Assembly (NCBI GenBank): GCA_037201625.1
Contig: JBBCGR010000002.1
Location: 12,831 to 76,830 of the forward strand
Direction: 5' to 3'
DNA length: 64,000 nt
DNA from: Acetobacteraceae bacterium
GTDB taxonomy: Bacteria > Pseudomonadota > Alphaproteobacteria > Acetobacterales > Acetobacteraceae
Both the position numbers and the translations under genes were made by a program. The notes under the pieces were generated by a model. The model ran no database searches. It was given only the letters and a program-made list of their open reading frames with translations, and was not told the DNA's origin. This document shows, one piece after another, positions 5,498-57,100 of this stretch (within the stretch, counting starts at the first letter, position 1; each line of letters starts with the position of its first letter).

Positions 5498-5534
5498 GGT
5501 GCGGCTGGGCTAGCACAGACGCGGACGGGGGAAA

Positions 5535-6611: not shown

Positions 6612-6629
6612 CAACAGCGCGTCACCCTG

Positions 6630-8067: not shown

Positions 8068-9108
8068 ATGCGGCGACGCATGGTGGCGCTGGGCATCGGC
8101 GCCGCGCTGGTCTCGGCTGCAATGGCGGCGGTCGTGACGGCCGGTCAGGCGGCGGCGCAGACGGTGAACCTCTACAACGCGCGCCACTACGGCACCGACC
8201 AGACGCTGTGGGACAGCTTCACCAGGCAGACCGGCATCAAGGTCAACGTGGTGCAGGGCGGCCAGGACGAACTGGTGCAGCGGCTGATCACCGAGGGCGC
8301 CAACAGCCCGGCCGATGTGTTCATCACGGTCGATGCCGGGCGGCTGGCCTTCGCCGCCGACAAGGGGCTGTTCCAGCCGGTGAAGACTCCCGCGCTGGAG
8401 GCCGCGATCCCGGCGCATCTGCGCGAGCCGAACGGCCTGTGGTACGGCGTCGCGGTGCGCGCCCGGGTGCTGGTCTACGACCGCCAGAAGGTGCAGCCGG
8501 AGGATCTCTCGACCTACGAGGCGCTCGCCGAACCGAAGTTCAAGGGCAAGATCCTGGTCCGCAGCGGCACCTATATCTACAACCTCAGCCTGCTCGGCTC
8601 GATCATCGCGGCCGATGGCGCGGCGGCGGCCGAGGCCTGGGCGAAGGGGCTGGTTGCCAATATGGCGCGGCCGCCGCAGGGCGGCGACACCGACCAGATC
8701 AAGGCGGTGGCCGCCGGCGTCGGCGACATCGCCATCTCCAACAGCTACTACTTCGCGCGCCTGGTGGCCTCGGACAAACCCGACGACAAGGCGATCGCCG
8801 CGAAGCTCGGGGTGTTCTTCCCCAACCAGAACAACCGCGGCACCCATGTCAACGTGAGCGGTGCGGGCGTCACGCGGTCGGCGCCCAACAAGGACAATGC
8901 GGTGAAGTTCCTGGAGTTCCTGGCCTCGCCCGACGCCCAGCGCTACTTCGCCGACGTCGCCTTCGAATATCCGGCCAATCCCAAGGTGCCGCCGCACCCG
9001 GTGCTGGCCGGCTTCGGCACGTTCCGCCAGGACACGCTGAACGCCGCCACCTATGGCGCCAACAACGTCGAGGCCGCCCGCATCATGGACCGCGCCGGCT
9101 GGAAATAG
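8068..9108 (+). CDS. Fe(3+) ABC transporter substrate-binding protein (FbpA/AfuA-like)
   Basis: Signal peptide then TVNLYNARHYGTDQTLWDSFT..., DVFITVDAGRL. ATG 8068 follows GGGGAGG. Confidence 0.85.
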   Translation: MRRRMVALGIGAALVSAAMAAVVTAGQAAAQTVNLYNARHYGTDQTLWDSFTRQTGIKVNVVQGGQDELVQRLITEGANSPADVFITVDAGRLAFAADKGLFQPVKTPALEAAIPAHLREPNGLWYGVAVRARVLVYDRQKVQPEDLSTYEALAEPKFKGKILVRSGTYIYNLSLLGSIIAADGAAAAEAWAKGLVANMARPPQGGDTDQIKAVAAGVGDIAISNSYYFARLVASDKPDDKAIAAKLGVFFPNQNNRGTHVNVSGAGVTRSAPNKDNAVKFLEFLASPDAQRYFADVAFEYPANPKVPPHPVLAGFGTFRQDTLNAATYGANNVEAARIMDRAGWK

Positions 9109-9206
9109 AGCGTGATCCGTACAGGTAGAATCACCGGAGCGGTGAATCACGCTCTCAGATAACGAGCTGGAGCGGATTCCGTGAGCCTACACGAACGGAA
9201 TCCGCT
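9108..9206. repeat. two REP-like palindromic hairpins acting as a probable bidirectional terminator between convergent genes
   Basis: GAGCGTGAT(9108-9116)/ATCACGCTC(9146-9154) with an inner TCACC..GGTGA hairpin. Second hairpin has a 13-bp stem, GAGCGGATTCCGT(9170-9182)/ACGGAATCCGCTC(9194-9206). Confidence 0.5.
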
Positions 9207-9218
9207 CTAGCCGCGACG

Positions 9219-10275
<1,057 letters not shown>

Positions 10276-10283
<8 letters not shown>

Positions 10284-11952
10284 TGCGCGCGCCGGGCCGC
10301 GAGGCGCGGATCATGCGGCACAGCAGCAGCACCGGCAGCAGCCCGACCGCGACGATGATCAGCGCCGGCACCGCGGCGGCGTCGAGACGCTCGGTGGTGG
10401 CAAGCTGGAACGCCTCCACCGCGAGCGTGTCGAAGTTGAACGGCCGCAGCATCATGGTCGCGGGCAGTTCCTTCAGCACCTCGACGAACACCAGCAGCAG
10501 CGCGCTCAGCAGGCTGCCGCGCAGCAGCGGGATATGCACCCTCGCCAGCACCCCGCCCGCGGTGGCGCCCAGGGTGCGCGCGGTGTCCGCCAGGCTGGGC
10601 CGGATGCGCGCCAGCCCGGCATCGAGCGGGTTGTAGGCCACGGCGAGGAAGCGCACCGCGCAGCCATAGGCGACCGCGGCGAGGGTGCCGCCGAGCACCA
10701 GGCCGGTGGAGATGCCGAGAAGCTGGCGCGACGTGGCGTCGATCGCCGAGTCGAGCATGCCCACCGCGATCAGCACGCCGACCGCGATCACCACGCCCGG
10801 GGTGGCGTAGCCCAGCAGCGCGGCGCGCATCAGGCCGGGCGCGACCCCGCCCCGGGTCCGCCGCACGGCGTAGACCGCCAGGATCGCGACCCCACAGGTG
10901 GCGAGGCTGACCACTGCGCCAAGCTGCACCGTGTCGCTCACCAGCACGGCCAGCCGCGCGGCCGCCAGCGGTTCGCCGGAGCGCAGCGCCATCGCCGCCA
11001 GCGCGGCCGCCGGGATCGCCAGGCCGAGCGCCGGCGGCAGGCCGCAGGCGAGCGTGGCGGCCACCGCGCGGATGCCGTGCAGCGGCACGGGGCGCAGGTC
11101 GCGATACCGGCTCGAGGTATGCGCATAACGCCGGCGCCCTCGGCTCACGCGCTCCACAAGCAGCACGGCGAACACCGCGAGCAGCAGCAGCGAGGCAAGC
11201 TGCGCCGCCGCCGCCGGGCTGCCATAGGCGAACCAGGCGCGATAGATGCCGGTGGTGAAGGTGGGGACCTCGAAATACCGCACCGCGCCGAAATCGGCGA
11301 GCGTCTCCATCACCGCGAAGCCTGCGCCCGCGGCGATCGCCGGGCGGGCGAGCGGCAGCGCGATGCGTAGGAATGCGCCCCAGGCGGAGCAGCCCAGCGT
11401 GCGGCCGACCTCGAGCGCGCAGATCGACTGGTCGAGGAAGGCGGTTCGCGCCAGCACATAGACGTAGGGGTAGAAAGCCAGCGACAGCACCAGGATCGCC
11501 CCGCCCGGGGAATGGATGGGCGGGAACCAGTAGTCACCCCAGCGCCAGCCGGTGAGCGAGCGGAGCAATCCCTGCAGCGGGCCGGTGAACTGCAGCAGGT
11601 CGGTATAGGCGTAGGCGAGGACGTAGGCCGGCATCGCCAGCGGCAACACCAGCGCCCAGTCGAGCCAGCGGCGGCCGGGGAAGTCGCACATCGCCACCAG
11701 CCAGGCGCAGCCGGTGCCGATGACGATGGTAGCGGCGCCGACGCCGGCGGCCAGCAGCAGCGTATTGCCCAGGTATTCGGCGAGCACCGTGGCGGCGAGG
11801 TGCTGCCACAGCCCGTCGGTGGGGGTGAGGGCGAGGACGAAGATGACCCCGAGCGGCGCGGCGACGACAGCGGCGAGCAGCACGGCGAGCCGTGTGCCGG
11901 GGGCGGGCATCTGGAGGGCTAGGGACATGGAGCGGCCAGCCGCTGTTGACAC
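10276..11952 (-). CDS. iron ABC transporter permease (two fused BPD-type domains, FbpB-like)
   Basis: 558-aa polytopic protein that overlaps the ATPase gene by 8 nt. Start codon uncertain (M1/M9/M15). Confidence 0.85.
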
Positions 11953-12764: not shown

Positions 12765-13104
12765 GGCGTTCCGAAACCGCTTTCCTGTCGAACCGGGCAG
12801 CGCCGCTACGAAACCTGAAGGCTCCGACCGCCGCCACTCCAATAAATAAGCCCCTATCCCCGCGCCCGATCGGGTTCACTCACTAGAATAGGAACGCATT
12901 CCCCGCATTACAGTTCCGCGTGAATTCTTGACCCAAGAGGTCGGAATATCTAGCCTACGCGGAGCGGCGCTGGTGCCGCAGGGTCTGCTTCCTCCACTAT
13001 CAGTTCGGCCCCCCCGACCGGCCGTCCCCCGGGACTGGGCTCCAGGTCCCAAGGTCCAGATACTATAGGGTAGAAGCCCCGGTACTTCATAACGGAATTG
13101 TCGC

Positions 13105-13797
13105 ATGGCTTTCATGTTCCTGCGTGAGACCATCCGGACGTATCGGGAACGCGACCCGGCAGCACGCTCCGACCTCGAGGTCCTGTTGTGCTATCCGGGC
13201 CTGCATGCCGTCATGTGGCACCGATTGTCGCATTGGCTATGGGGCCACCGACTCTATTTACTTGGCCGCTTCTCCTCCCACATCGCCCGCTGGCTGACCG
13301 GTATCGAAATCCACCCGGCCGCCAAGCTCGGCCGCCGCCTGGTGATCGACCACGGCATGGGCGTGGTGATCGGCGAGACGGCCGAAGTGGGCGACGACTG
13401 CTACCTCTACCATCAGGTCACCCTGGGCGTGGCCCGCACCAGCGGCGGCAAGCGGCACCCGAGCGTGGGCAACAACGTCATCATCGGCGCCGGTGCGAAG
13501 GTGCTGGGGCCGATCAAGGTCGGCAACAACGCCCGCGTCGGCTCCAACGCCGTCGTGCTGGACAACGTTCCCGACGACACCACCGTGGTGGGGATTCCCG
13601 CCCGCTCGGTCGATCGCACGCCGGTGCGTGACCGCAAGATGCCGGGCTTCGACCCCTACGGCATCCCCTGCGACGGCAGCCTGGACCCGCTGCTGCGCGA
13701 CCTCGACCAGATGCACTGCGAACTGGCCGAACTGGAGGCGCGGGTCGCGCGGGTGGCCGAGGAGCAGATGCGGCAGCGGCAGGCGGCGGCGGAGTAG
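13105..13797 (+). CDS. cysE: serine O-acetyltransferase
   Basis: [26 protein letters not shown], then hexapeptide repeats ([27 protein letters not shown]). Confidence 0.9.
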
Positions 13798-16974: not shown

Positions 16975-18102
16975 ATGCGCATCCTCGTCGCGATGTCCGG
17001 CGGCGTGGACAGCAGCACCGTCGCCGGATTGTTGCGTGAGGCCGGCCACGAGGTGGTCGGCGTCACGCTGCAACTGTACGATCACGGCGCCGCGGTGGGG
17101 CGGAAGGGCGCCTGCTGTGCCGGCCAGGACATCCACGACGCGCGCCGGGTGGCCGACCACCTGGGCATCCCGCACTACGTGATCGACGCGGAGAAGCGGT
17201 TCGCCGATGCGGTGATCGGGGACTTTGCCGACAGCTACGCCGCGGGCGAGACGCCGGTGCCCTGCGTGCGCTGCAACCAGACGGTGAAGTTCGCCGACCT
17301 GACGGCACTGGCCGCGGGGCTGGGCTGCGAGCGGCTGGCCACGGGCCACTATGTGCGGCGGCTGGACGGGCCGACCGGCCCCGAACTGCATCGCGCCGTC
17401 GATGAAACGCGCGACCAGAGCTGGTTCCTGTTCGCCACCACGCGCGCGCAGCTTGCGCGGACGCTGTTCCCGCTGGGCGCGATGGCGGACAAGCAGGCAG
17501 TGCGCGCCGAGGCGGAGCGTCTCGGCCTGCCCGTGGCGGCCAAGGCGGACAGCCAGGACATCTGCTTCGTCCCCTCGGGCAGCTACGCCGAGACCGTGGT
17601 GCGGCTGCGCCCCGATGCCGGCGCGCCGGGCGAGATCGTCAGCCGCGACGGCCGCGTGCTGGGCCGGCATGACGGGATCGCCCGCTACACGGTGGGTCAG
17701 GGGCGGCGCCTCGGCGCGGCCGCGCAGGATGCCGGGCAGCAGCAGGCGGTGGTCGCGCTGGAGCCGGCGACGCGTCGGGTGGTGGTGGGCCCGCGGAGCG
17801 CCGGCACGCGGCAGGTGCGGCTGCGCGAGGTGAACTGGCTGGTCGACGCGCCGGTCGCGCCGCTGGCCTGCCAGGTGAAGCTGCGGGCGCGCGAGGCGCC
17901 CCATCCGGCGCAGGTGCTGGGCGAGGATGTGACGCTGGAGATGCCGGCGCTGCCGGCGCCGGGGCAGGCCTGCGTGTTCTATGACGGGAGCCGTGTGCTG
18001 GGTGGCGGCTTCATCTGCCGCGGCACGGTGGTTGACGTGGCAGGGGAGGGCGGACTATCTCCCCTCCCCTCCGGATCGGATGGCGGCGTAGCTCAGCGGT
18101 AG
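16975..18102 (+). CDS. mnmA: tRNA 2-thiouridine(34) synthase
   Basis: PP-loop MRILVAMSGGVDSS, CCAGQD and VPC.RCN motifs. The last ~20 nt overlap the tRNA gene. Confidence 0.9.
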   Translation: MRILVAMSGGVDSSTVAGLLREAGHEVVGVTLQLYDHGAAVGRKGACCAGQDIHDARRVADHLGIPHYVIDAEKRFADAVIGDFADSYAAGETPVPCVRCNQTVKFADLTALAAGLGCERLATGHYVRRLDGPTGPELHRAVDETRDQSWFLFATTRAQLARTLFPLGAMADKQAVRAEAERLGLPVAAKADSQDICFVPSGSYAETVVRLRPDAGAPGEIVSRDGRVLGRHDGIARYTVGQGRRLGAAAQDAGQQQAVVALEPATRRVVVGPRSAGTRQVRLREVNWLVDAPVAPLACQVKLRAREAPHPAQVLGEDVTLEMPALPAPGQACVFYDGSRVLGGGFICRGTVVDVAGEGGLSPLPSGSDGGVAQR

Positions 18103-18156
18103 AGCAGGGGAATCATAATCCCTTGGTCGGTGGTTCAAATCCGCCCGCCGCTACCA
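18082..18156 (+). tRNA. tRNA-Met (anticodon CAT; an Ile2 identity via lysidine cannot be excluded)
   Basis: Hand-folded cloverleaf: acceptor GGCGGCG/CGCCGCT, D arm GCTC..GAGC, anticodon stem GGGGA/TCCCT with loop ATCATAA, T arm GGTGG TTCAAAT CCGCC, encoded CCA. Confidence 0.9.
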
Positions 18157-18179: not shown

Positions 18180-19430
18180 CTACGAGGCGCGTTTGGCAGT
18201 TCGCGCTCCCTTGCGTTTGGCAGTCGCCGGTCCTGCTGCGTTCTTGATCGGCAGCACGATCGCCTCTGCGGTGCTCGCTGCCAGGCGTTTCTGATCGGCG
18301 CCTCGCGCGTAGTGGCGAGAGGCGGTGGCCGTCCTGTGGCCCAACAAGGCCTGGATCCCCTGCTCGCTTGCTCCACCGTCAGCCGCCCAGCTCGCCGCTG
18401 CGCCACGCAGGCCGTGCCACACAAGTCCATCGAGGCCGGCTGCTCGGATCGCTTGGCCAGCCGCCTTCTGAAAGGCGTTGGCTATCCACGGCGTCTCGTC
18501 GGGCCTGGTAAGGATGGTGAGCGCGGCGATCGTCGACCCGCCCATCGCCTGCTGACGCGCATCACGACGGCGGTCCAACTCGGCCCGCAAGGCGGGCTGA
18601 CAAGGCACCCAGAGTTTGACCGTGGCATTGCCTTTCAGCTGCACCACGTGGATCCCGGCGCCGTCATAATCGGCCCATCGCATCTTCACCTGATCCTGCC
18701 CGCGCTGGGCCGTCAGGAGCGCCAGCAGCGCGGCGAATCGCCACTCCTCATTGGCCCGCTCGTAGAACTGCGTGAACTCCTCCGGCCGCCACGGCCGGAA
18801 CCCTTCACCTCCCGTTTTCAGTCGCTTCGGGCGCAAGGCAGGATTGTCCGCCCGCCAGCCCAGCGCGTCGACGGCGAAGGTCATCAGGATCGATAGGACC
18901 GTGATCACGCGGTTTGCCTGGCGGCCATTCCACACCCGCTCGGTCGCTCCATCGGCGCCACCGCGCACCGCCACTTCGCGCCAAGCATAGCGGCCCCGGA
19001 TCTGAGCAACATGCTGTCGGCGCAGGCCGTCCACCAGCAGCTTGCCCCAGTCGCGCACCAGCGGCGCCAGGGCCTTCTCATAATCCCGTTTGGTTTCCGG
19101 CGCCTTCTCGGCCCATTCGTCGCTCGCCCGGTACTTCTGGATCAGGTCGGCGATGCTGTGGGGGCGCACAGCTCGGGCAGCCGCCGCATCGGCAGCGGCG
19201 CGTTGTGCTGCCTCATGCGCCTCGTGCGTTCGCTGCCATGCGGAAACGAGGGCCGTTGTGTCGGCAGGATCAACGGGCGTCCCGTCATCGCCCAGCAGCC
19301 GTCGGCGGAACCCGTCGCGCCGGTAGTAGGCGACCATGCGGCCGCGAGCGCGAAACGTCTCCAGGTAGGCCAGCTTCACCGATGCCACATGCGGCATCCC
19401 ACTCTGCGACTGGATCAGGCTCGGGGGCAT
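18180..19430 (-). CDS. int: tyrosine-type phage integrase
   Basis: C-terminal catalytic region HGLRGAAASW...LLGHRTATASRHYAR. N-terminus like MPHVASVKLAYLETFRARGRMVAYYRRDG. Start is 19430 or 19397. Confidence 0.9.
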   Translation of the reverse strand: MPPSLIQSQSGMPHVASVKLAYLETFRARGRMVAYYRRDGFRRRLLGDDGTPVDPADTTALVSAWQRTHEAHEAAQRAAADAAAARAVRPHSIADLIQKYRASDEWAEKAPETKRDYEKALAPLVRDWGKLLVDGLRRQHVAQIRGRYAWREVAVRGGADGATERVWNGRQANRVITVLSILMTFAVDALGWRADNPALRPKRLKTGGEGFRPWRPEEFTQFYERANEEWRFAALLALLTAQRGQDQVKMRWADYDGAGIHVVQLKGNATVKLWVPCQPALRAELDRRRDARQQAMGGSTIAALTILTRPDETPWIANAFQKAAGQAIRAAGLDGLVWHGLRGAAASWAADGGASEQGIQALLGHRTATASRHYARGADQKRLAASTAEAIVLPIKNAAGPATAKRKGARTAKRAS

Positions 19431-19626
19431 GGCCGGCGCCCCCCGCTTCGAACAGGCGGTTGAGATAGTCATCCAGGTTGTCCCGCAGGTAAATGATCCG
19501 GCCAGGCGAGTGGCGACGGGGCGGTGCGACTTCACCCGCCTCAACCTTCGCACGCAGACCCGTCACCGACAGTCCGATATACTCGGCTGCAAGCTCTTCC
19601 CGCATTCCGCGCGGCCAGCCAGGCAT
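19285..19626 (-). CDS. xis: excisionase / AlpA-like helix-turn-helix protein
   Basis: MREELAAEYIGLSVTGLRAKVEAGEVAPP...IIYLRDNLDDYL. The ORF tail overlaps the integrase start by more than 100 nt in another frame. Confidence 0.6.
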   Translation of the reverse strand: MPGWPRGMREELAAEYIGLSVTGLRAKVEAGEVAPPRRHSPGRIIYLRDNLDDYLNRLFEAGGAGHAPEPDPVAEWDAACGIGEAGLPGDVSRSRPHGRLLPARRVPPTAAGR

Positions 19627-29399: not shown

Positions 29400-29810
29400 G
29401 TGTCAACGACAGGATTATGCCCGAGTTCCACCTTTGTTCGCAATTCCGATTCGGCTCAATCGGACGTCAGCACCGATTCGACGGATGCTGCTGGCGGGCG
29501 CAGCCGCCCGCTCCTGATTGCCGATATCCAGCGCGCCATTGCGGCACATTTCGGTGTGCCCGCAACGGAGATGGTGTCGGATCGCCGGCACCGCCAGGTG
29601 GCCCGCCCCAGACAGGTGGCGATGTACATTGCGCGGCACGCGACACCGCACTCGCTGCCGCAGATCGGCCGTGCGTTCCGGCGTGACCACACGACGGTGA
29701 TGCACGCGATCGCGCAGATCGAGGCGCTGATGGTGGCCGATGCCGAGTTCGACGCCGAGGTACGCGCGCTGACGTTTGCATTCACGCCCGCTGCCGGCCC
29801 GGTGTCATGA
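29400..29810 (+). CDS. DnaA domain-IV (Bac_DnaA_C) containing protein
   Basis: IQRAIAAHFGVPATEMVSDRRHRQVARPRQVAMYIARHATPHSLPQIGRAFRRDHTTVMHAI matches the DnaA C-terminal DNA-binding domain. GTG 29400 lies 8 nt after AAGGAGG (the track start is 29367). Confidence 0.8.
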   Translation: MSTTGLCPSSTFVRNSDSAQSDVSTDSTDAAGGRSRPLLIADIQRAIAAHFGVPATEMVSDRRHRQVARPRQVAMYIARHATPHSLPQIGRAFRRDHTTVMHAIAQIEALMVADAEFDAEVRALTFAFTPAAGPVS

Positions 29811-31691: not shown

Positions 31692-33245
31692 ATGAGCGGC
31701 GTAGGGCGCCCACGCGGCAGGACGCAGGAAACGCTCAACCAGTCCTCGCTCTGCCAGCTGCTGCGCGACGTCGGCACGCCGCCGGCGATGATCGCCGCGA
31801 AGCTGAACCTCTCGACGGCGCGGGTCTACGAGCTGCTCAAGCTGCCCAGCGGCGAGCCGGAGGAAGGACCCGATCCGGCTCTGCGATCCGAACCGGAGAG
31901 CGAGCGCCCGGCGCGGCTGTCGGCCCGGACGCTATTCAACCGCGCATGCCTGGCGATGAACGAGGTGAACGGGGACGCCAGGCTCCGCGGCCTGGATCGT
32001 GAGCACCGGCGGCTTTGGCTCGAGATCGTCCAGGCGATCGGCCAGCTCGGCGACGGCGTGCGTCTGCAGCTTGAGCCAAGCGGCTTCTCCGATCGCGCCG
32101 ACCTGGCGGCCACGTATGGCGGATCGGAGGACGAGCTCGGCCGGCTATGTGCGCGGCGGCTGCTCATCGATGAGGGCGATGCCATCGCGCTCCCCGGCGG
32201 CCTCGGCCTGATGCGAGAGCGGCCGAACCGCCGGCGGGTGCCGCGGGCCCGTGGGGAGAGGCGGCCCGGTCCGTGGCAGCACCACATGCCGTACGTGATC
32301 CCCGGCGGCCTTGGAGATTCGAGGAAAATAGGGATTTCACCAGAATCGGTTTCTGGAGAAATGGCTATTTCACCAGAATCGGGTTCTGATGAAATCGGGG
32401 TTTTCCTGGAATCGGACGGTCTCGCGTGCGTTGCTGCTGCTGCTGCTGATAGTGAAAAAAATCAATCATTTAGCAGCAGCAGCAGCTCTGGTAGCCGCGC
32501 GCGGGATTCCAGCGAAACCCCACCCGATTCTGGAGAAATTGCCGCCACTGATTCCACAGATATTACATCGAAACGATCGGACGAGCCCCAGGCCGTCCTG
32601 GCGGCCGAGCTGACGACCGCGGCCAAGCTGGGCCGGGGGCCTCTGCCCTGGGAGCTCGACACGGTCCGCGGCTGGCTGGCAGCCGGCGCGTCGGCCGACA
32701 CCGTGCGCGCCGTGGTCGCCAGCAAGATGCGTACGGCTGGCAAGCGCCATGCCGCGCCGCCTGGCACGCTGGCCTATTTCGACAAGGCCATCCGGGAGTC
32801 GCTCGATGCCGGGCTGCGGCCGGCTTCGGTGACGGGCACGGTGCCGATGTCCGACGCGCCACCACGACAATCGAACCCGGCCTGGCCCGACGAGGCCGCC
32901 TGGCGAGCCCGCCACGTTGCGTTGTCCCGGGCGGCGGAGGGGGCGTTCAACGGCTGGCGCTACATCCCGGGCTGGGACGAGTACGCGGCCATCGTCCGGG
33001 ATCCGGCGCACGCCGAGGATGCGCTGCTGTGGGGTGAGGTGTTCCTGCTGTGGCGGCGTCACAACCGCCGCGACGTGCCGCTGATGAAGGATTTTCTGGC
33101 AGCCGTCGCCGGCCCGTCAGGCGGCGAACAGGCCAGAGACTGGGCGCGGGGCTACGTCGCCGCGCACGCCGGCAGCGGCGAGGTGAGAGAGGGCTGGCGC
33201 GACTTTCTGGCGGACGTCGACCAGGTTGGGGGTCAGGCCCGATGA
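31692..33245 (+). CDS. putative replication initiator/organiser (lambda O-like layout with internal origin)
   Basis: N-terminal HTH (PAMIAAKLNLSTARVYELL). The central low-complexity segment is encoded by the iteron/AT-rich DNA. Sits at the end of the early-right operon next to the DnaA-IV protein. Confidence 0.6.
   Translation: MSGVGRPRGRTQETLNQSSLCQLLRDVGTPPAMIAAKLNLSTARVYELLKLPSGEPEEGPDPALRSEPESERPARLSARTLFNRACLAMNEVNGDARLRGLDREHRRLWLEIVQAIGQLGDGVRLQLEPSGFSDRADLAATYGGSEDELGRLCARRLLIDEGDAIALPGGLGLMRERPNRRRVPRARGERRPGPWQHHMPYVIPGGLGDSRKIGISPESVSGEMAISPESGSDEIGVFLESDGLACVAAAAADSEKNQSFSSSSSSGSRARDSSETPPDSGEIAATDSTDITSKRSDEPQAVLAAELTTAAKLGRGPLPWELDTVRGWLAAGASADTVRAVVASKMRTAGKRHAAPPGTLAYFDKAIRESLDAGLRPASVTGTVPMSDAPPRQSNPAWPDEAAWRARHVALSRAAEGAFNGWRYIPGWDEYAAIVRDPAHAEDALLWGEVFLLWRRHNRRDVPLMKDFLAAVAGPSGGEQARDWARGYVAAHAGSGEVREGWRDFLADVDQVGGQAR
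32334..32539. repeat. candidate phage replication origin: iterons plus AT-rich palindrome
   Basis: ATTTCACCAGAATCGG at 32334 and 32367, GTTTTCCTGGAATCGG at 32400 (33-bp phasing), and an inverted copy CCGATTCTGGAGAAAT at 32524. (GCT)5 at 32433-32447 and (AGC)5 at 32472-32486 flank a 24-nt AT-rich core. Confidence 0.6.
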
Positions 33246-33305: not shown

Positions 33306-33533
33306 TCACGTGCGACCGAACGGGCCCCCGACGCCGATATGTGACCGAAAGAGGTGGTAGCCCACACGCTCGAGTTCGATGGCGGCTGTCGCCGCCTCGT
33401 TCAGCAGCTCGTGAGAACCTTGGCCGATGTGCTCCCACGGCCCCCGGCGTTCAGGCAGTTCCTTGCCAGCCGGATCCAAAGCGAAGCCGTTGAGGCCGGG
33501 ATCACGCCGCGAGCAGAAGAAATGGCCTTCCAT
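33306..33533 (-). CDS. small protein A (75 aa), paralog of 34135..34368
   Basis: MEGHFFCS..GL.GF..D..G..LP.R.GPWEHIGQG..ELL.E...A...L...GYHLFR shared with paralog B. Differences inside the conserved blocks fall at minus-frame third codon positions. Confidence 0.7.
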   Translation of the reverse strand: MEGHFFCSRRDPGLNGFALDPAGKELPERRGPWEHIGQGSHELLNEAATAAIELERVGYHLFRSHIGVGGPFGRT

Positions 33534-33676
33534 CGCTGAACGATACGCTGTTGCCGTCGCGTTCCCTACGATTTATTTGCGATCTGGCATAATTGTGCGC
33601 GATTGATTGTAAAACTCGCACATTATCATTGCGCGCCTTAACGTGTGCTCGTTGCTCGCAGCGATAGGAGTTCGGC
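33534..33676. promoter_or_regulatory. AT-rich divergent promoter/operator region
   Basis: Lowest-GC stretch of the area (TTTATTTGCGATCTGGCATAATTGTGCGCGATTGATTGTAAAACTCGCACATTATCATTGCGCGCC). Imperfect inverted repeat ATAATTGTGCGCGA / TCGCACATTAT. TAGGAG RBS lies before ATG 33677. Confidence 0.45.
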
Positions 33677-34081
33677 ATGCCGGCGCGCACCGTAATCGTG
33701 CTCGATGATCGAGCATGTGCTGAGGCGGCCGCCTCGGCGCTCCAGGTGATCGGAATTGAAGCCGCATACATCCACGATCCTATGGCTGCCTTGGATGCGC
33801 TGGACGGCGCCCAGCGGATCGAGGTGCTCGCCACGTCGATTGACCACGGCCGCGGCAAGCCCAACGGCATTGCCCTGGCGCTGATGGCGCGCATGAAGCG
33901 GCCGGGCATCAAGGTCGTGTTCGTCGGTCAGGCCGATATGGCGCACCACACCACTGGTCTTGGGGCGTTCCTCGTATCCCCCGTGCCCGCCACCGAGGTG
34001 GTGGATGCGGTGGTGCGCATGCTCGCGGAGGGCTACGGTCCGCCAGCAGATCCGCAACCCGACGCTACTGCGCGGAACTGA
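33677..34081 (+). CDS. stand-alone receiver (REC)-like domain protein, degenerate active site
   Basis: 134 aa. VIVLDD (acidic pair), IEVLATSID (Asp56 candidate), KVVFVGQ (Thr/Ser position is Gly), FLVSPV (conserved Lys-Pro is Ser-Pro). Hand-aligned to CheY. Confidence 0.65.
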   Translation: MPARTVIVLDDRACAEAAASALQVIGIEAAYIHDPMAALDALDGAQRIEVLATSIDHGRGKPNGIALALMARMKRPGIKVVFVGQADMAHHTTGLGAFLVSPVPATEVVDAVVRMLAEGYGPPADPQPDATARN

Positions 34082-34134
34082 TGGTCCCTGTGACCTGGTG
34101 CGTCAGCCGCCGGCTGTAGCGCTCGCAGGAGCCT

Positions 34135-34368
34135 TCAGCGCCAGGCGATTTCGAAGGGCCCCGGTTTCTTGGCGGGCCCTCGGAAAAGGTGATAGCCGAG
34201 CTGCAGCAAATCGGCGCTGGCAGCCCGTCCCTCAGTCAGGAGTTCCTCCGGTCCCTGGCCGATGTGCTCCCACGGGCCCCCGCGCGCCGGAAGTTGGGCG
34301 CCAGTTTCATCCCGGGTGAACGCATGCAATCCGAGCTCGCTGACCGACCGAAAGAAATGTCCATGCAT
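34135..34368 (-). CDS. small protein B (77 aa), paralog of 33306..33533
   Basis: MHGHFFRSVSELGLHAFTRDETGAQLPARGGPWEHIGQGPEELLTEGRAASADLLQLGYHLFRG... Convergent with the REC-like gene. Confidence 0.7.
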   Translation of the reverse strand: MHGHFFRSVSELGLHAFTRDETGAQLPARGGPWEHIGQGPEELLTEGRAASADLLQLGYHLFRGPAKKPGPFEIAWR

Positions 34369-34644
34369 GCGCCGAGTGTAAAATTGCGCGGCGTCAAAGC
34401 GCGAGCGACTTTCGCGTGTGGAGAGCGCTCGTACTGAACTTGGGACTCAGTCAGCGAAGGACCATCCGGGTCCCCAAGCAGAGGCACGCACGGATATCAC
34501 GATGGCCAGGAAACTGCCCGCCGGCGGGGCGGTTGCGCTTTCTGGTCGCCGGAGTTGTTGGGAGGCGCATCAGCGCGCGCTTCGCGCTGAGCATTGTTGA
34601 AGGTCGCCGCGACGATGAAAATCCGAGTGCCGTAGTCGGAATTG

Positions 34645-36179: not shown

Positions 36180-37049
36180 ATGACAGCGGAAGATCTGTCT
36201 TCTCAAAGGGATAGCGTCGGCGCTGTGGGTGACGAGATGGTCGTGCGCATGTGGCTGCACGGCAGGAGCGCCAACACCATCGCCGCATATCGGCGCGACG
36301 TGACGCGGTTCTTCGCCAGCGCGGGCAGGCCCCTGATGCAGATCCAGCTCGCCGATCTGCAGGCCTTCGCGGCCTCGATGCCGGAAGTGGCGCCGGCGAC
36401 GCGCGCCCGCTGCCTCGCCGCGGTGAAGTCGCTACTGAGCTTCGCCCGCCGCATGGGCTACCTGACGGAGGATGTCGGCGCGGCGCTGCGACTGGAGAAG
36501 CCTGGCGCGCCGCCGGTCGAGCGCATTCTCGCCGAAGCCGAGGTCAGCCGGATGATCGGCGCGGCGCCGAACCCGCGCGAGCGCACGGTGCTGCGGCTGC
36601 TCTATGGTTGCGGCCTTCGGGCATCCGAGGCCGCCGCGCTGCGACGTCGAGACCTGACCGCACACCGCCGCGGCGGCGAGGCGCGGATCCTGGGCAAGGG
36701 CAGCAAGCTGCGCGTGGTGGAGATCCCGCCGACGCTGTGGCGCGAGCTGCAGGAGCTGCAGAGTTCGCCGGCTCCGGATGCGCCGGTGATCATCGGCGCC
36801 GACGGCCGGGCACTCACGCGCAAGGGGATCTATCGGATCGTGCGTCGTGCTGCCCGCCGCGCGGGATTGGCACAGGCGGTGTCGCCGCACTGGCTGCGGC
36901 ACAGTCACGCCAGCCACGCTCTGGATCACGGCGCGCCATTGCCAGCCGTGCAGCAGGATCTCGGCCATTCGTCGCTGACGACGACGTCGCGCTATCTGCA
37001 CAAGCGAGCTGGCGACAGCTCGTCGAAATACGTACCGGGCATGAACTGA
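36180..37049 (+). CDS. XerC/XerD-like tyrosine recombinase (second recombinase of the prophage)
   Basis: 289 aa. N-terminal SAM-like core-binding domain (TIAAYRRDVTRFF). Catalytic R (GLRASE), HWLRHSHAS, LGHSSLTTTSRYLH (Tyr). No arm-binding N-domain. Confidence 0.85.
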   Translation: MTAEDLSSQRDSVGAVGDEMVVRMWLHGRSANTIAAYRRDVTRFFASAGRPLMQIQLADLQAFAASMPEVAPATRARCLAAVKSLLSFARRMGYLTEDVGAALRLEKPGAPPVERILAEAEVSRMIGAAPNPRERTVLRLLYGCGLRASEAAALRRRDLTAHRRGGEARILGKGSKLRVVEIPPTLWRELQELQSSPAPDAPVIIGADGRALTRKGIYRIVRRAARRAGLAQAVSPHWLRHSHASHALDHGAPLPAVQQDLGHSSLTTTSRYLHKRAGDSSSKYVPGMN

Positions 37050-37057: not shown

Positions 37058-37699
37058 GTGGACTCTCCGCAGTCACCGACGCAGCCTGGCCACGATGTGC
37101 CGGCCGGCTTCATGCAGGACGCGCAAGGGCGGCTGGTGCCGTTGGCCCTGGTGAAGGCCGAGCACAAGCTCGAGGACCAGCTCGTGCGAGACCTGTACGC
37201 GGGTGCGTTGCAGCAGTCCGCCGCGCTGAGGGATTTCCGGGGGAAGGCAGCGGCAGAGATTGCGGCGTTCCTGTCCCTGCTGGCGGACCAGTATGGCGCG
37301 CCCCGCGGCGGTGCCAAAGGCAATCTCACGCTCAGCAGCTACGACGGGACATTGCGGATTCAGCTCGCCATCGGTGATCAGCTGGCGTTCGGCCCCGAGC
37401 TGCAGGTGGCAAAGACGCTGGTGGATGACTGCATCCGGGCCTGGTCGGAGGGTGCGGACGAGAAGCTGCTGGCGATCGTCAACGACGCGTTCGCGGTGGA
37501 CAAGCAGGGCAAGCTGAACGTCGACAGAATTCTCGCGCTGCGGCGCCTCGCGATCGATGACGAGGCGTGGCAGCACGCGATGTCCGCGATCAGCGACGCG
37601 ATCCGCGTGGTGCGATCGAAGGAATACCTGCGCTTCTACCAGCGGGCGAAGCCCGACGAGAAGTTTCAGCAGGTGCCGCTGGATCTGGCGTCGGTGTGA
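37058..37699 (+). CDS. DUF3164 family phage protein
   Basis: C-terminal half of ORF 36251..37699: PAGFMQDAQGRLVPLALVKAEHKLEDQLV...GGAKGNLTLSSYDG...VPLDLASV. GTG 37058 follows GAGG. Confidence 0.7.
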   Translation: MDSPQSPTQPGHDVPAGFMQDAQGRLVPLALVKAEHKLEDQLVRDLYAGALQQSAALRDFRGKAAAEIAAFLSLLADQYGAPRGGAKGNLTLSSYDGTLRIQLAIGDQLAFGPELQVAKTLVDDCIRAWSEGADEKLLAIVNDAFAVDKQGKLNVDRILALRRLAIDDEAWQHAMSAISDAIRVVRSKEYLRFYQRAKPDEKFQQVPLDLASV

Positions 37700-44464: not shown

Positions 44465-45089
44465 ATGGCCGATCCAACCGTCAACGCGAAGATCTATCGC
44501 GACCAGGGCGGCGACCGCCTCGTCGCCAAGACTGGTGGTGCCGTCGTGATCGAGGACGGCGCCACGTTCAGCATGGGCGGCGACCGCAACAAGGGGTTCG
44601 TCCCGCTCGACCTGATGAATGCCCGCGAGGTGGCGACCAACGCCACCATCAACGCGTCCGGCAATGGCGGCATCCTCGCCTCCGACACCACGCCCATCCT
44701 GCAGCGGGGTGAACGGCGCGACCGACAAGGCGCTGCGGCTGAACTGGGCAGCCTCGAATGTCGACGAGATCACCTGGTCCTTCGCCTACCCGCCGGACCT
44801 CGACGATGCGCAGCCGGTCGAGGTGCACGTGCTCGCGGCAATGGCCGGCGCCAGCGACACGCCGATCCTGACGGTCGGCTACTTCGAAGGCGTCGGCGAC
44901 ACCGATGCCGGCGGAGCAACGGCCGCGGTGACCGGGACGAGCGTCGCCGAGTACACGCGGACGATTGCCGCAGCCGATGTCGGTCCGGCGCCGAACGTCG
45001 CCAGTGTGTCACTCGTTCCCGGCACCCATGGCAGCGACGCGCTCTACCTCTATGCGGTCTGGATCGAATACGTGCGCAAGACGGCCTGA
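44465..45089 (+). pseudogene. frameshifted structural-region gene (+1 needed at a G4 run, 44706-44709)
   Basis: Frame A (44465) gives protein-like sequence up to ...GILASDTTPILQR, then R-rich junk. Frame B (44619..45089) continues VNGATDKALRLNWAASNVDEITW...LYLYAVWIEYVRKTA. Removing one G from CGGGGTG joins them. Confidence 0.7.
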
Positions 45090-46415: not shown

Positions 46416-48314
46416 ATGTGGCAAGGCGTTCATCCACCGCGCGGGCGGGTTGAATTTGATCCGATTGCGCTCGGCGGTGTGCCGTCATTCGCATTGCTGC
46501 CGTTCGCCGGAGAAACCACGCCTCGGCTGACCCGGAGTAGCGTGTCCGGCTCGCTGCTGGGTGGCGCCACGATCGGCATCGGAAATATCGCCATGGGTCT
46601 CACGGGGACCGGGGGATATTGGTCGGCCACCAACGTCGGCGGTTACACCCTGCCGCAGAACCAGGGCAGTTTGCTGGTGTTCGTCACGCCGGGAACATCT
46701 CCGACGGACGGCGCGTTCCACGGCCTTTGCATCTTCGGTCCATCGAATTACCCGACGGGGCCGAGCCTGGACGTCGTGAAGTGGAACGACAACAACTGGT
46801 ATGCCGGATGGTGGAACGGTTCGGCCACGCGCGTGGTGGTCTCGGCCGCCGGCACCTACACGGCTGGCGTTCCCTTGGTTGTGGGCGTGACCTGGAGCAA
46901 GGCGTCCGGCGCCGCATCGACCAGGTTGTATTGCAACGGCCGACTGATCGGCACCGACACCAACACGCCGGCCACGGGCGCCACGAACGGCGCGTCGGCC
47001 TACATCACGTGGCTGAACGACCCGACGAATTTTGCGCCCTGGGCGAAGAACGCGAATGACGCGTTCTATTACGCCATGGTCTATGACCAGGAACTTTCGC
47101 CGGCCCAGATGGCCCAGGTGGCCGCTCGGCCGTTCATGATGTTCCGCCCGCCCGCCCGGCGGTTCGTCGGCAGGTTCAGCAGCTCCTATAGCGAGTCCAT
47201 CTCGCTCGCCGCGTCGGCCGCGTTCACCGCCGTTGCGGCGCTGCAGATCCCGTCCGGCATCACCGTGGCGGGATCCGCAACGATGGCCACCGCCGGTGCG
47301 CTCGGCATCAGCGCGGCAGCGACCATCAGTGCCGTGTCGACGATGACGGCCGCGGGCACGCTGGCGATCGCCGGCACGATCACGCTGAGCGGCACGTCCG
47401 GCCTGGCCGCCGCGGGCACCATGGCGATGCCGGCGGCCGCGTCGCTCGCCGGTACGGCTGACGTCGCAGTGTCGGGCTCGCAAGCGATGGCAGGGGCGGC
47501 CAGCCTGGCAGGCTCGGCCGGTGTAGACGCCGCTGGGACGCTTGCCATGCCAGCCGCCACCTCGCTCCCGGGCTCGGCCGGCGTGGCCGCATCCGGCGCC
47601 CTGGCGGCGACAGTGAGCGGCAGCCTGGCAGGCTCGTCTGGCATGGCGGTGGCCAGTGCACAGGCGGTGACGGTTGCTGCGTCGCTCGCCGGCACAGCCG
47701 GCGTAGCAGCATCCGGTGGCCTCGTGCTCGATGCAGCCGCCACCCTGACCGGTTCGGCCAGTGTGAGCGCCGCAGGCGCGCTGGCCATGCCAGCCGCCAC
47801 CTCGCTCCCCGGTGCCGCCGGCCTGGCCGCGTCGGGGGTGCTGGCCGCGACAGTCAGCGCAGGCCTGGCCGGCTCTTCCGGCATGGCGGCCGCCGGCGCT
47901 CAGGCGATGACAGTTGCCGCATCGCTCGCCGGCACCGCCGGCGTGACAGCCTCGGGCGGCCTGGTGCTCGATGCAGCCGGCACTCTGACCGGCTCGGCCG
48001 GCGTGACCGCCGGCAACGCGGTGACGATCGCCGGCGCGGCATCCCTGTCGGGTTCGGCCGGCTTGGCCGCCGGTGCCGCGCTCGCGGCGCAGTCCACGAT
48101 CGTCTTCACGGTCACGGCCTCGGTCGCCGCGTCCGCCGTCTACACGATCGAAGAGCTCATCCAGCTGGTCGGTGCCGCTGCCGTCACCGCCGCCGGCGAC
48201 GCCGGCACCGACATCGTCCGCACCGTGTCGCTCGACGGCCACCGGACCCTGGTCGTCACCCTGATCGGGCGCCGCCAGGGCGTGCTGCAGCTGCGCGCCG
48301 ACCTTACCAACTAG
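46416..48314 (+). CDS. LamG/concanavalin-A-like lectin domain protein with long Ala/Gly/Ser/Thr 20-residue repeat region
   Basis: N-terminal ~250 aa: GSLLVFV.P....DG.FHGL....WNGSATRVVV....YTAGVPLVVGVTW...STRLYCNGRLIG (LamG-like). Then ~16 units of x-A-x-G-x-L-A-x3-A-x-S-L-x-G-x-A-G-V. Confidence 0.8.
   Translation: MWQGVHPPRGRVEFDPIALGGVPSFALLPFAGETTPRLTRSSVSGSLLGGATIGIGNIAMGLTGTGGYWSATNVGGYTLPQNQGSLLVFVTPGTSPTDGAFHGLCIFGPSNYPTGPSLDVVKWNDNNWYAGWWNGSATRVVVSAAGTYTAGVPLVVGVTWSKASGAASTRLYCNGRLIGTDTNTPATGATNGASAYITWLNDPTNFAPWAKNANDAFYYAMVYDQELSPAQMAQVAARPFMMFRPPARRFVGRFSSSYSESISLAASAAFTAVAALQIPSGITVAGSATMATAGALGISAAATISAVSTMTAAGTLAIAGTITLSGTSGLAAAGTMAMPAAASLAGTADVAVSGSQAMAGAASLAGSAGVDAAGTLAMPAATSLPGSAGVAASGALAATVSGSLAGSSGMAVASAQAVTVAASLAGTAGVAASGGLVLDAAATLTGSASVSAAGALAMPAATSLPGAAGLAASGVLAATVSAGLAGSSGMAAAGAQAMTVAASLAGTAGVTASGGLVLDAAGTLTGSAGVTAGNAVTIAGAASLSGSAGLAAGAALAAQSTIVFTVTASVAASAVYTIEELIQLVGAAAVTAAGDAGTDIVRTVSLDGHRTLVVTLIGRRQGVLQLRADLTN
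47190..48140 (+). repeat. coding tandem repeats: 60-bp units with a higher-order 240-bp duplication
   Basis: 240-bp copies at 47529-47768 and 47769-48008 (roughly 80-85 percent identical by eye), with degenerate 60-bp units on both sides. Confidence 0.85.
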
Positions 48315-54102: not shown

Positions 54103-57100
54103 TTGTCCGAACAGATCATCACCGAGCTGATCGTCGACGCGCGTGGTGCCGAACCCGGCACCGCGCAGTTCGTCGCGATGATGGGCGTTGCCCAGCGCGC
54201 GGTGGACAAGCACATCCAGTCGCAGGAGAAGCTCGCCGAGCAGGCGACCGCCGCCGGCAATGCCGCGGCCGGGGCCGGACAACAGATCGAGACGGGCGCA
54301 CGTTCCGTCAGCGCGGCCGAGCGCGCCTATGCGGCCTATGTCGCGCGGATGGATCCGGCATTCGCCGCTCAGCAGAAGCTCACCGCCGAGACCAACCGCG
54401 TGAATGCGGCGATCGACGGCTTGATCAACAAGATCAACCGCACGCCCGTCGATACCGAGGCCTATACGAAGCTGGCCGCACAGATGTCGGCCCTCACGGG
54501 GCGCTCGGCCGAACTGCGCGGCACGCTGGACCGGCTCGCCAGCGGCAGCATGAGCGTCGAGCAGGCGCTCGGCTCCCTGGCCACGGAATCGGAGCGTGCC
54601 GCGGCCGCTGCACGCGATGCCGCCACGTCACAGGCGCAGATGGTGGCCCGCGCCCAACAGATCAGGGATGCGCTCGATCCGCTCGGCGTCGTTCAGCGTG
54701 AATACAGCGCGGCGCTGGCAGACGCGACGCGTCTGCAGATTGCCGGGCTGATCACCGATCGCGAATACATCGAAACCACCAATCGAAGCCTCGCTGCGCT
54801 CGACAGGAAAACCGCAGAACTCGACGGTTCGGCGCAGGCCGCGCGCGACGCGGCCGCGGCCGAGATGCAGATGACGGCGCAGGCCAGGCAATGGATCGCG
54901 ACGGCAGATCCTGCGGCCGCGTCACAGGCGCGTCTCAACGAGGCCAGGATCACCGGTGAGAAGCTCATCGCGGCCGGCCTGATCACGCAGCCGCAGCTCA
55001 CCGCTGGCCTCAAGAAGCTGTCCGACCAGCACGAGCAGCTCTATGGCACGACGACGCGGTCCACCGGCGCGCTGCGTGCGCTGTCGGTGCAGATGCCCGA
55101 CGTGGTGCAGGGCGTGCTGTCCGGCCAGAGCGCCTTCCAGCTCCTCGTGCAGCAGGGCGGCCAGGTGATCTCGGTCCTGCAGCTGCAGGGTGGCGTGCTG
55201 AGCGGGCTGAAGGCGGCATTCTCGGCGCTCGTGTCGCCGATCGGCCTCGCTGTCGCGGCCGGCGTCGCGCTGGTCTCCGGCATCGTCGCGGTCGGCGCGG
55301 CATCCGAGGCGTCCGCCCGGCGGATGGTCGATCTCCAGAACGCGCTCCGCGCGACGCGCACGGATTACGTGAACCTTGCGCAGGAGGTGAACGCCGCCGC
55401 CAAGGCGGTCGCGGCCACGAGCCAGATCGGTTCCGGAGATGCGCGCGCCGCGGGCCTGGCCATCGCCGGCTCGGTGGGGTTCCAGGGGAACCAGTCCGAG
55501 CTCGAGCGGCTGATCAAGCTGTCCGGCGACCTGGCGGCGGCATGGGGCACCACGCTGCCGGAGGCGGGCAGGAAGCTGGCGGCCGGCCTGACCGATCCCG
55601 CGAAGGCGGCCCACGAGCTTGCCGATAAGACCTTCCCCGGCGTGACGCAGCAGCTCGCGCGCACGATCGACCTGATGCAGAAGGGCGGCGACGTCGCGGG
55701 CGCACAGCGCCTTCTGATCGATGCCTACAGCCGCGCCGTGGCTGGCGCCGGGGAGCCGCACACGCGGCTTCAGAGGGCCGTCTCCGGCCTGTCCGAGGCA
55801 TTCACCTCGGCCGGACAGAGCGGTCGCAGCCTGGCCGACGTCATCGGGACGACCTTCACCGATATCGCCTCGTTCGCGGTCGAACAGATCACGCGGCTGG
55901 TCACCGCGATCTCCTGGGCCAAGGACAAGATTGCCGCGCTGCTGCCCGGCCAGCTCGGTGGCGGAACGCCCGCGCCGGGCAGTTTCACCGGCGGTCTGCA
56001 GCCGGCGATCCCGACCAACAACACCATCCGTCCCGATCTCGCGCAGCTGCTCTACAGGATCGCGGAGCAGAGGAACTTCGGCGGTGCGCCGGACGTATCG
56101 GCAACGCAGGCCGATCTCGCCACGCAGATCATGGCGATCGAGTCCTCCGGCGGCCGGAACATCCGCGTCAGTTCGGCGGGCGCGATCGGTGCGATGCAGT
56201 TGATGCCCGGCACGGCGGCGGCAATGGGCGTCAGCCCATACGACATGGCCGGGAACATCGAAGGCGGCCTCCGGTTCATCGCCCAGCTATGGCAGCAGTT
56301 CGGCGGCGATCCGGTCCTTGTGGCGATGGCCTACAACTGGGGCCCGGCGAATGTCGAGGCGTTCCTGCGCGGCGTCAAAGCCATTCCGGTCGACGTGCAG
56401 AAATATGCCCAGACCGTCACGGGTATCAGCGGCGATCAGCTGCTCCAGCGCTACAGCGGATCCTTCGCCGCCGCGTCTCGCGCGGGCATCGGGACGAACG
56501 TCGTCGGCCGCAGCGACGCCGACCTGCTCCAGGCGCGGATCAATGCTGCCGACAAGCAGGCGCAGGGCCTGATCCCGGGGCAGCAGGAGGACATACGGGC
56601 ACAGATCAGGAACTTCGACGATCTCCGCGCGAAGGTCGGCGAGAACTCCGCCCAGGGTCAGGCCTACTCGGCGGTCATCAAGGACCTGCAGGGGAAGCTT
56701 GCCGAGCTGCTCACGCCGATGCAGCAGCTCGACAAGTCGCTGCGCGACCAGGCGGCTCTGTCGGGTGTCGCCGAGGGTGCGGCGCGCGAGTACGCGCAGG
56801 CGCTGCAGCAGGCGACCGACGTGGCGGTGAAGCAGGGCGACGGCACGCTGCAGACCGCGGACCGGCTGCGGGTGCTGCAAAGCGTGCACGACAGGCTGAC
56901 CGGGCAGTACCAGCAGAGCATCGTCGAGATCGACCGCCAGACCGCGGCGAACAATCAGTTCAACGCGGCGCTGGCGAACACCATCGCCACCTATGGCTCC
57001 TACACCGCGGCGGCGCAGCACCTCGCCAATGTCGAGAAGGCAAGGGAGGAGCTGCGCAAGACCACGACGGACAATGAGCCTGAGTACCGGCAGCGCCTGG

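Follow-up and report, generated by a model that had tools for sequence, protein, structure and literature searches.

Genes and features of the locus

The 64,000-nucleotide stretch of DNA analysed here (the window) belongs to contig JBBCGR010000002.1 of an Acetobacteraceae bacterium known from a metagenome-assembled genome (MAG), and it carries within a prophage a compact trio of genes. Two of them, A and B, are small, related to each other and encoded on the minus strand; between them, on the plus strand, lies a gene for a protein resembling the receiver domain of response regulators (the REC-like gene; Table 1). A and the REC-like gene diverge from a common spacer of 143 bp, and the REC-like gene and B converge with 53 bp between them. 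An earlier sequence-only reading of the same DNA had proposed three open reading frames (ORFs) with these positions and strands, and both the ORF list and an independent gene caller, run on a second assembly of the same contig, confirmed all three. A, the REC-like gene and B are genuine genes. NCBI names WDN25_03855 and WDN25_03860 as hypothetical proteins of "MAG: Acetobacteraceae bacterium". Gene B, unlike the other two, has no NCBI protein accession and is apparently unannotated in the deposited MAG record.

The divergent region had also been described as rich in AT, and its composition bears this out, with a GC content of 0.50 against 0.70 for the window (69.6%). Simple scans of this region detected neither a σ70 consensus promoter nor an intrinsic terminator, and an Rfam scan returned no match in the locus.

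Table 1. Positions of the three genes and of the candidate regulatory features around them, numbered within the window.
Feature	Position	Strand	Description and basis
Small protein A	33306..33533	-	75 amino acids (aa), hypothetical protein WDN25_03855; ORF, called gene, NCBI accession
REC-like gene	33677..34081	+	134 aa, WDN25_03860, predicted stand-alone aspartate-less (pseudo-)receiver
Small protein B	34135..34368	-	77 aa, paralog of A; ORF, called gene
A-REC divergent intergenic region	33534..33676	.	AT-rich, GC ~0.50; composition profile
Shine-Dalgarno GGAG of the REC-like gene	33667..33670	+	6 nt before the start codon; read from the sequence
-10-like hexamer TATCGT of A	33540..33545	-	6 nt upstream of ATG; no Shine-Dalgarno
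-10-like hexamer TACACT of B	34375..34380	-	6 nt upstream of ATG; no Shine-Dalgarno
EcfG-like GGAAC-N18-CGTT	33539..33565	-	pattern search; overlaps the -10-like hexamer of A, ends 5 nt before ATG

A and B as coding paralogs

A and B share 38 of 72 aligned residues (53%; BLASTP, E 1e-24), and the motif string that had been quoted for the pair agrees with this alignment. The synonymous codon pairs cited with it were likewise all found in the DNA alignment, both in the GYHLFR block (TAC/TAT, CTC/CTT, TTT/TTC, CGG/CGA) and in the GPWEHIGQG block (CAA/CAG, GGT/GGA). The two genes differ at 27, 20 and 41 first, second and third codon positions, respectively, and the codon changes comprise 18 that are synonymous and 34 that are not. 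By the Nei-Gojobori method, the proportions of synonymous and non-synonymous differences (pS and pN) are 0.65 and 0.33, corresponding to a dN/dS of ~0.28, and the ratio pS/pN is lower in every other frame. In fact, the minus-strand frame is the only one of the six that is open in both copies, and it is also the frame with the highest protein identity. Similarity of the DNA runs from the ATG to about codon 72 and does not extend into the flanks. Since selection acts in this frame and the similarity ends at the ORF borders, the pair goes back to an old duplication of a coding sequence that purifying selection has maintained, and it is not a DNA repeat. The earlier claims that the minus-strand frame is under purifying selection and that both copies are maintained as coding paralogs are therefore upheld.

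It could be objected that A and B are not genes at all, being instead copies of a DNA repeat that have diverged, or antisense ORFs that are open by chance where GC content is 70%. GC-rich genomes do yield many spurious ORFs, the apparent absence of B from the NCBI annotation fits such a view, and the GC content at third codon positions (GC3) is only 0.71–0.73 in A/B, compared with 0.78–0.89 in the neighbouring phage genes. This objection has next to no chance of being right, however, and is effectively refuted by the selection seen in the only frame open in both copies, by the confinement of the similarity to the ORFs, by dozens of relatives (25–40% identity) from genomes of 52–64% GC in which start, length and motif are preserved, and by the confident structural model described below.

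A rare family of small proteins

An exhaustive HMMER search with a profile of A and B against 1.84 billion representative sequences found 31 proteins at E<=1e-3, and after A itself the best relatives reached E 1e-10 at ~40% identity. A profile search gathered 53 clusters of the A/B family, all of them unnamed or "hypothetical" and mostly from short soil-metagenome contigs; a word-index homology search with B alone returned only B itself. Neither A nor B matched anything in Pfam, NCBIfam, PHROG or PADLOC, so the earlier statement that they belong to no characterised family holds across these four databases. A comparison of 25 family members with Pfam also gave no relevant model, the two matches obtained being at chance level (E 0.16). 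On the strength of these searches, A/B is best regarded as a rare, undescribed family of small proteins.

Members of the family are ~65–95 aa long with a core of ~65 residues, and they share the motif M.iy.F.S....l.aFT.D.tG.nLP...gPW...G...(helix)...GY.L, in which S8, G23, L26, P27, P32, W33 and G58 are invariant or nearly so. A matches the hidden Markov model (HMM) of the family at E 1e-20 to 1e-24. An AlphaFold2 (AF2) model of B, built from an alignment of 51 sequences, has a predicted local distance difference test score (pLDDT) of 83 and places strands at residues 2–8, 14–18, 33–40 and 59–63 and a helix at 47–56. The predicted order of elements is thus β1-β2, a long conserved loop (D..G.nLP...gPW), β3, α and β4.

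Comparison of this model with PDB and BFVD by Foldseek gave nothing at E<=0.001, and the family profile matched no PDB sequence below E 0.8. The best topological match was YcgL of E. coli (2h7a), at Foldseek rank 3 (TMq 0.59, E 3.1, probability 0.28). The order of elements in YcgL/DUF709 (PF05166), namely β-β-(loop or helix)-β-α-β, agrees with that of A/B, and an hhalign comparison of the A/B family with YcgL was co-linear with a score of 19.5 (P 0.006, probability 6%); shuffled YcgL controls scored 9.9 ± 1.9 with a maximum of 17.6, and none of the 200 reached 19.5. The Viterbi core of that alignment is the common C-terminal "...GyyL" strand. YcgL lacks the nLP...gPW loop, however, which is the hallmark of the A/B family, and PF05166 matched neither A, B nor 23 relatives at E<=1. 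The resemblance is weak and may be taken as a lead only, not as membership. Moreover, membership would not explain a mechanism for A/B, because no paper assigning a function to YcgL was found in the literature.

Organisation and upstream signals of the A/B family

Relatives of A and B occur as monocistronic genes among small ORFs or beside a cold-shock gene, an HSP20 gene, DUF1488, transposases or metabolic genes, and no neighbour family recurs among the A/B loci. Outside the window, the A/B genes at the loci examined are solo or paired only with one another. Four distinct proteins (P0024, P0025, P0026 and P0052) are two-domain fusions of the family. Among 14 loci of one subfamily, two (L023 and L024) have adjacent paralogs, and a third (L031) has a second copy 1.3 kb away. 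Given these recurrent tandem and fused forms, pairing appears to be a trait of the family.

In the fused and tandem forms (P0024, P0025, P0026 and P0052; L023, positions 972–1615; L024, positions 1706–2242), the first unit usually carries ...SYAe.sL..LaiSDPvm.AvkqDGFYLARSG, and the second is of another subtype, ...AIPLG.TMASTSP.I...IE..GYALVKG. This order of two subtypes suggests a conserved heterotypic pair.

A fusion of another kind lies on a megaplasmid of Microvirga lotononidis (NZ_CP141050.1, ~308.2–308.8 kb; L036, positions 2989–3573), where an unannotated ORF joins an A/B domain (E 1.6e-18) to a PRC-barrel (PF05239, E 2.6e-8). No other fusion of A/B to a named domain was seen. A search of plasmids with B found nothing, and one with a member of an A/B subfamily gave this fusion as its single, weak match.

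The closest relative of A/B, P0023, is encoded on a 12-kb metagenome contig (L018) whose positions 1–9371 hold ORFs of 36–127 aa separated by long intergenic gaps and without Pfam matches. A PHROG scan of this island of tiny genes produced one confident match, to a PHROG of unknown function, and another that was marginal (E 0.0098), which does not establish the region as phage.

A and B also resemble many of their relatives in what precedes them. Their start codons have no Shine-Dalgarno sequence, as is the case for many A/B relatives, and each is preceded by a -10-like hexamer in the same geometry: TATCGT-tcagcg-ATG in A, TACACT-cggcgc-ATG in B and TATACT-cactgc-ATG in relatives. TAnnnT stands 6–7 nt before the ATG at 8 of 17 A/B loci, not all of them independent, against a background of 1.4%. 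In the tandem pairs of L023 and L024, the gene lying downstream has AGGA in place of TAnnnT. Because of the hexamer close to the ATG, the missing Shine-Dalgarno sequence and the AGGA at downstream genes, the pattern suggests that first or solo A/B genes are read from leaderless transcripts.

A receiver without its aspartate

Receivers that have the recognisable fold and lack one or more of the five catalytic residues are termed pseudo-receivers, and those without the phospho-accepting aspartate, such as the FrzS receiver, are termed aspartate-less receivers (ALRs) (Maule et al. 2015, PMC4395418; Bourret et al. 2025, PMC12632262). Pseudo-receivers commonly work through protein-protein contacts (PMC12632262).

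By sequence, the REC-like protein is a distant receiver. It has no match to PF00072 in Pfam at E<=1, so the gathering threshold is not reached, and a PF00072 match is precomputed for 4 of its 19 relatives. NCBIfam gives a sub-threshold match to the receiver part of PRK13557 (positions 417–510; E 1.4e-7, 30 bits against a cutoff of 631). A HMMER search of PDB sequences finds the receiver 28tm at E 2e-6, with Ser54 opposite the acceptor Asp (latSi against lvtDv) and a two-residue insertion thereafter. The C-terminal receiver of PAS hybrid histidine kinases (PRK13557; 28tm) is thus the best sequence-level relative, although such receivers keep the acceptor Asp (lvtDv) where the REC-like protein has latSi. 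The family itself is small (~19 clusters): 18 relatives are 50–54% identical to the window protein, a short fragment of 67% identity having been excluded. Many of them carry the JGI label "NtrC family response regulator", and no studied member was found. The likely source of the family would be a true alphaproteobacterial receiver.

The structural prediction is clearer. An AF2 model with the relatives as alignment has a pLDDT of 80 and a clean (βα)5 arrangement (strands at 5–8, 29–31, 50–54, 79–84 and 97–100; helices at 12–24, 35–44, 64–74, 86–92 and 105–117), in which β3 ends at S54. Foldseek returned 296 PDB matches at E<=1e-3, and the top 50 were almost all receiver domains with a TM-score of ~0.7; the matches include the FrzS receiver (2gkg/2i6f). 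The earlier expectation that the 134-aa protein would model as a receiver fold is therefore confirmed.

The catalytic positions are as follows. The acidic pair after β1 is D10-D11 in the window protein and D-E, D-D or D-G in relatives. The acceptor column holds R, S, C or A across the family and never Asp, the window protein having Ser54. At the Thr/Ser position, the window protein has V83/G84 and most relatives have Thr. At the Lys-Pro position, it has S101-P102; in the relatives, the Pro is conserved and is preceded by varied residues, none of them Lys. An aromatic residue at K-3 is kept (F98). The sequence-only reading had described D10, D11, S101-P102 and the missing Thr/Ser (V83/G84) correctly. 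Its candidate acceptor, Asp56, does not stand up: Ser54 ends β3 and aligns with the Asp of 28tm, and position 56 (D+2) varies among relatives (D/E/R/Q). The family has an invariant set of its own, K61-P62-N63-G64, A66-L67-A68, M70, R72, P76-G77-I78 and V80.

Because a receiver fold is predicted and the acceptor Asp is absent, the REC-like protein qualifies, by the published definitions, as a pseudo-receiver of the aspartate-less kind, and the proposal of a phosphorylation-independent pseudo-receiver is supported by the predicted fold and by the missing acceptor Asp, Thr/Ser and Lys. Like the FrzS receiver and other ALR domains, it would have the (βα)5 CheY-like fold without the acceptor. Compared with the catalytic quintet, it lacks the acceptor Asp, Thr/Ser and Lys and keeps the DD pair. 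It differs from known ALRs in being a stand-alone protein of 134 aa without an output domain, in lying below PF00072 even at E<=1, in its two-residue insertion after β3, in its GKPNG.ALA.MAR.KRPGIKV signature and, for the copy in the window, in being borne by a prophage.

Distribution of the two families

The sequence-only reading of a functional three-gene cassette had named failure of the families to co-occur as evidence against it. Every locus that was fetched was scanned with the HMMs of both families. The REC loci comprise six independent cases (L002 and L003, which are alphaproteobacterial MAG chromosomes, L004, L012, L013 and the L014–17 group), and the A/B loci number ~20 (L005–11 and L018–34). 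An A/B gene was found at none of the six REC loci within the available flanks, and a REC gene at none of the ~20 A/B loci. Within the limits of modest numbers and short contigs, the cassette as a functional unit is thus supported at none of the loci fetched, and the arrangement of three genes is unique in the data examined and for that reason cannot be called a system.

Nothing else ties the trio to those loci apart from a generic ABC-ATPase similarity between L002 and positions 9222–10310 of the window. L002 is plainly chromosomal, its REC homolog being flanked by large ORFs whose translations are permease-like and ABC ATPase-like. A 202-aa ORF beside the REC homologs of L014–17 was compared with the 202-aa ORF beside B and proved unrelated. 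At L004 (positions 5764–6162; Acetobacteraceae MAG contig DASRQX010000358.1), the match to the REC family is split over three frames, which suggests either a remnant of the gene with frameshifts or a fault in the assembly.

Phage sequences were equally unproductive. Four pattern-based scans of IMG/VR viral contigs (A+B, REC and two A/B subfamilies) gave no confirmed match, and a tblastn search of GenBank phage records with the REC protein gave nothing. Profiles of PADLOC-DB v2 matched none of A, REC, B and four neighbouring proteins at E<=0.1. The cellular context of the relatives argues, if mildly, against a role specific to phages.

The prophage

The prophage was followed from a tRNA-Met and integrase (18.1 kb) to past the tape measure gene (59.6 kb). 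The tRNA-Met (18082–18156) adjoins a 457-aa tyrosine integrase on the minus strand (18180–19553), with the host gene mnmA to the left, and this is probably the left junction. When the window was searched for an attachment-type repeat of this tRNA-Met end, nothing of at least 14 bp turned up elsewhere in it, so the right end probably lies beyond the 64 kb. To the right of the integrase come a DnaA_C-like gene and then a 517-aa gene (31692–33245) with a weak PHROG match to a replication initiator (E 9e-5). The trio follows. Beyond it lie first the gene for a 195-aa protein, which belongs to a PHROG family of unknown function, and two small ORFs, and later the DUF3164, TerL, portal, S78 protease and HK97-type capsid genes and the tape measure gene (54103–59616). 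From 25.8 to 44.4 kb, no called gene other than A and B is on the minus strand. The gene calls and PHROG matches support the earlier placement of the locus in a prophage: on one side of it is a replication-type gene, and on the other are the genes for packaging and head. The downstream genes that had been called late-regulatory match just the PHROG family of unknown function. Sister phages were sought with the 195-aa and 517-aa neighbouring proteins, and none was found in IMG/VR or among GenBank phages.

Proposed prophage cargo from two cellular families

The reading that we favour, with a probability of about 0.5, is that the locus is accessory ("moron"-type) cargo of the prophage, drawn from two unrelated cellular families, and not a dedicated system of three components. 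Morons, as known from lambdoid phages, are accessory genes placed between functional modules, and absence from sister phages is their defining test. Like morons, the trio sits between replication and packaging/head modules, A and B run against the phage operons and appear to have promoter-like elements of their own, and the relatives are cellular genes, not phage genes. Unlike morons, the trio has no detected terminators, and its composition differs by a slightly lower GC3 alone.

On this reading, A and B would be a lineage-specific duplicate pair of a rare unnamed family, standing in tandem on the minus strand, and the gene for the aspartate-less receiver would have been acquired separately and have come to lie between the copies in the opposite orientation. 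Because the paired state appears as a family trait, A and B may form a small binding module that is dimeric or pseudo-dimeric. Since both genes have a -10-like hexamer at 6 nt from the ATG and lack a ribosome-binding site, each would probably have a leaderless transcript to itself that runs counter to lytic transcription and could conceivably be made in the lysogen. The receiver cannot work through Asp phosphorylation, because its family lacks the acceptor Asp and Lys, and it would most likely serve as a constitutive protein-binding adaptor through its invariant β3-α3/α3-β4 surface (GKPNG.ALA.MAR.KRPGIKV). The A/B module and the receiver would act independently in whatever effect they may have on the host.

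Several points weigh against this reading. The test of co-occurrence is limited to six REC and ~20 A/B loci, most of the metagenome contigs being 1–5 kb long, and the close packing of the trio, in which A and REC diverge from a common 143 bp of AT-rich DNA and REC is separated from B by 53 bp, would also fit co-regulation. The case for dimers comes only from tandem and fused forms of other subfamilies, which are ~30–40% identical to A/B. That for leaderless expression is drawn from the hexamer pattern, and a -35 element at standard spacing was not found. Finally, the test of a moron, absence from sister phages, would need a relative for comparison, and neither a close relative of the A/B pair (next best E 1e-10 in the exhaustive search) nor a related phage was found.

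Among the alternatives, the one that comes nearest, while still unlikely, would make A, B and possibly REC host-type small proteins of the general stress response or stationary phase, with A transcribed from an EcfG-type promoter, that is, one for a σ factor of the extracytoplasmic function (ECF) class. The EcfG consensus is GGAAC-N16-17-CGTT, and the copy upstream of A, GGAAC-N18-CGTT, stops 5 nt short of the ATG, in a window where the motif is enriched (6 against 0.68 expected). Relatives adjoin genes for cold-shock domain (CSD) and HSP20 proteins and lie among tiny ORFs, and the Microvirga megaplasmid fusion joins one family member to a PRC-barrel, a kind of protein that is common in alphaproteobacterial stress regulons. 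The spacing at A is one base longer than in the consensus, however, and neither B nor any of the homologs examined has the motif upstream, so that it is not conserved as a promoter of the family. Further, the hexamer that overlaps CGTT would do equally well as a σ70-type -10 box, and the associations with stress genes are anecdotal and do not recur. Decidedly unlikely is the reading in which all three genes form one module, where A/B would bind and regulate the pseudo-receiver, or be regulated by it, and so affect lysogeny, superinfection immunity or host signalling. Their immediate adjacency, the divergent region common to A and REC, the convergence of REC and B at 53 bp, the presence at one spot of three genes foreign to the phage core and the protein-protein contacts through which pseudo-receivers commonly act (PMC12632262) would all be in keeping with it. 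Yet the two families did not co-occur at the 6 independent REC loci or the ~20 A/B loci, and each is conserved without the other, A/B being elsewhere solo or paired with itself.

A module for anti-phage defence or anti-defence, carried at a cargo hotspot of the prophage, is very unlikely. Prophage cargo typically sits, as here, between replication and late modules and in reversed orientation, and the proteins are small and uncharacterised; against this, neither the trio nor its neighbours match PADLOC, neither family was confirmed on viral contigs in the four pattern-based IMG/VR scans, the tblastn search of GenBank phage records with REC came back empty, and the relatives are found in chromosomal-looking contexts (ABC transporters, metabolic genes, a cold-shock gene). 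The boldest proposal, for which the chance is slimmer still, sees the trio as a signalling decoy of the phage. The ALR would mimic a single-domain response regulator of the host and titrate a kinase or partner-switch protein, with an A/B heterodimer as controller or effector, and a stress or cell-cycle pathway of the host would be re-wired during lysogeny; separately, A/B would represent a new fold that functions as a tandem pseudo-dimer and is made from leaderless mRNAs. If the trio did act together, it would mean a phage that uses a pseudo-receiver against host two-component signalling, and the comparative evidence argues against this.

Significance

If the favoured reading of unrelated cargo genes is true, the locus itself is routine prophage cargo, and its value lies in two by-products. 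One is the delimitation of a rare family of small proteins whose fold is predicted with confidence and has no significant structural neighbour, whose members tend to be paired in tandem or by fusion, and whose promoter geometry suggests leaderless mRNAs. A/B is a reasonable candidate for a new domain of unknown function (DUF) entry and for small-protein study. The other is the definition of a compact family of stand-alone ALRs with an unusually invariant β3-α3 surface. The REC-like gene belongs to the known pseudo-receivers, and it offers a tractable example, with a single domain, for studying how these act, which is still an open question (PMC12632262); the A/B family, on the other hand, is itself undescribed. 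Its fold, pairing and leaderless geometry are probably the most reusable result of the analysis.

Other features of the prophage

The EcfG-like motif was also counted over the whole window. Six matches to GGAAC-N16-18-CGTT occur, against 0.68 expected from dinucleotide shuffles, and none of 100 shuffles reached six. Five lie on the minus strand (12893–12917, 13546–13571, 29405–29429, 33539–33565 and 44994–45019) and one on the plus strand (46692–46717).

The 517-aa gene upstream of the trio contains an array that resembles a replication origin (32326–32543). Three direct repeats of 33 bp (32326–32424), built on ATTTCACCAGAATCGG, are followed by inverted copies at 32505–32543, and between these lies an AT-rich (GCT)n/(AGC)n hairpin (32432–32486). 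The local GC content of the array is 0.53 compared with 0.70. Iterons embedded in the initiator gene are known from lambda O, which the array in the 517-aa gene resembles.

Besides the integrase at the tRNA-Met, the prophage has a second tyrosine recombinase, XerC/D-like and 289 aa long (36180–37049), which is followed by the DUF3164 protein (37058–37699). Both lie in the middle of the prophage, with the early genes on one side and the terminase on the other. Such a recombinase might resolve dimers, serve an invertible element or belong to a nested mobile element.

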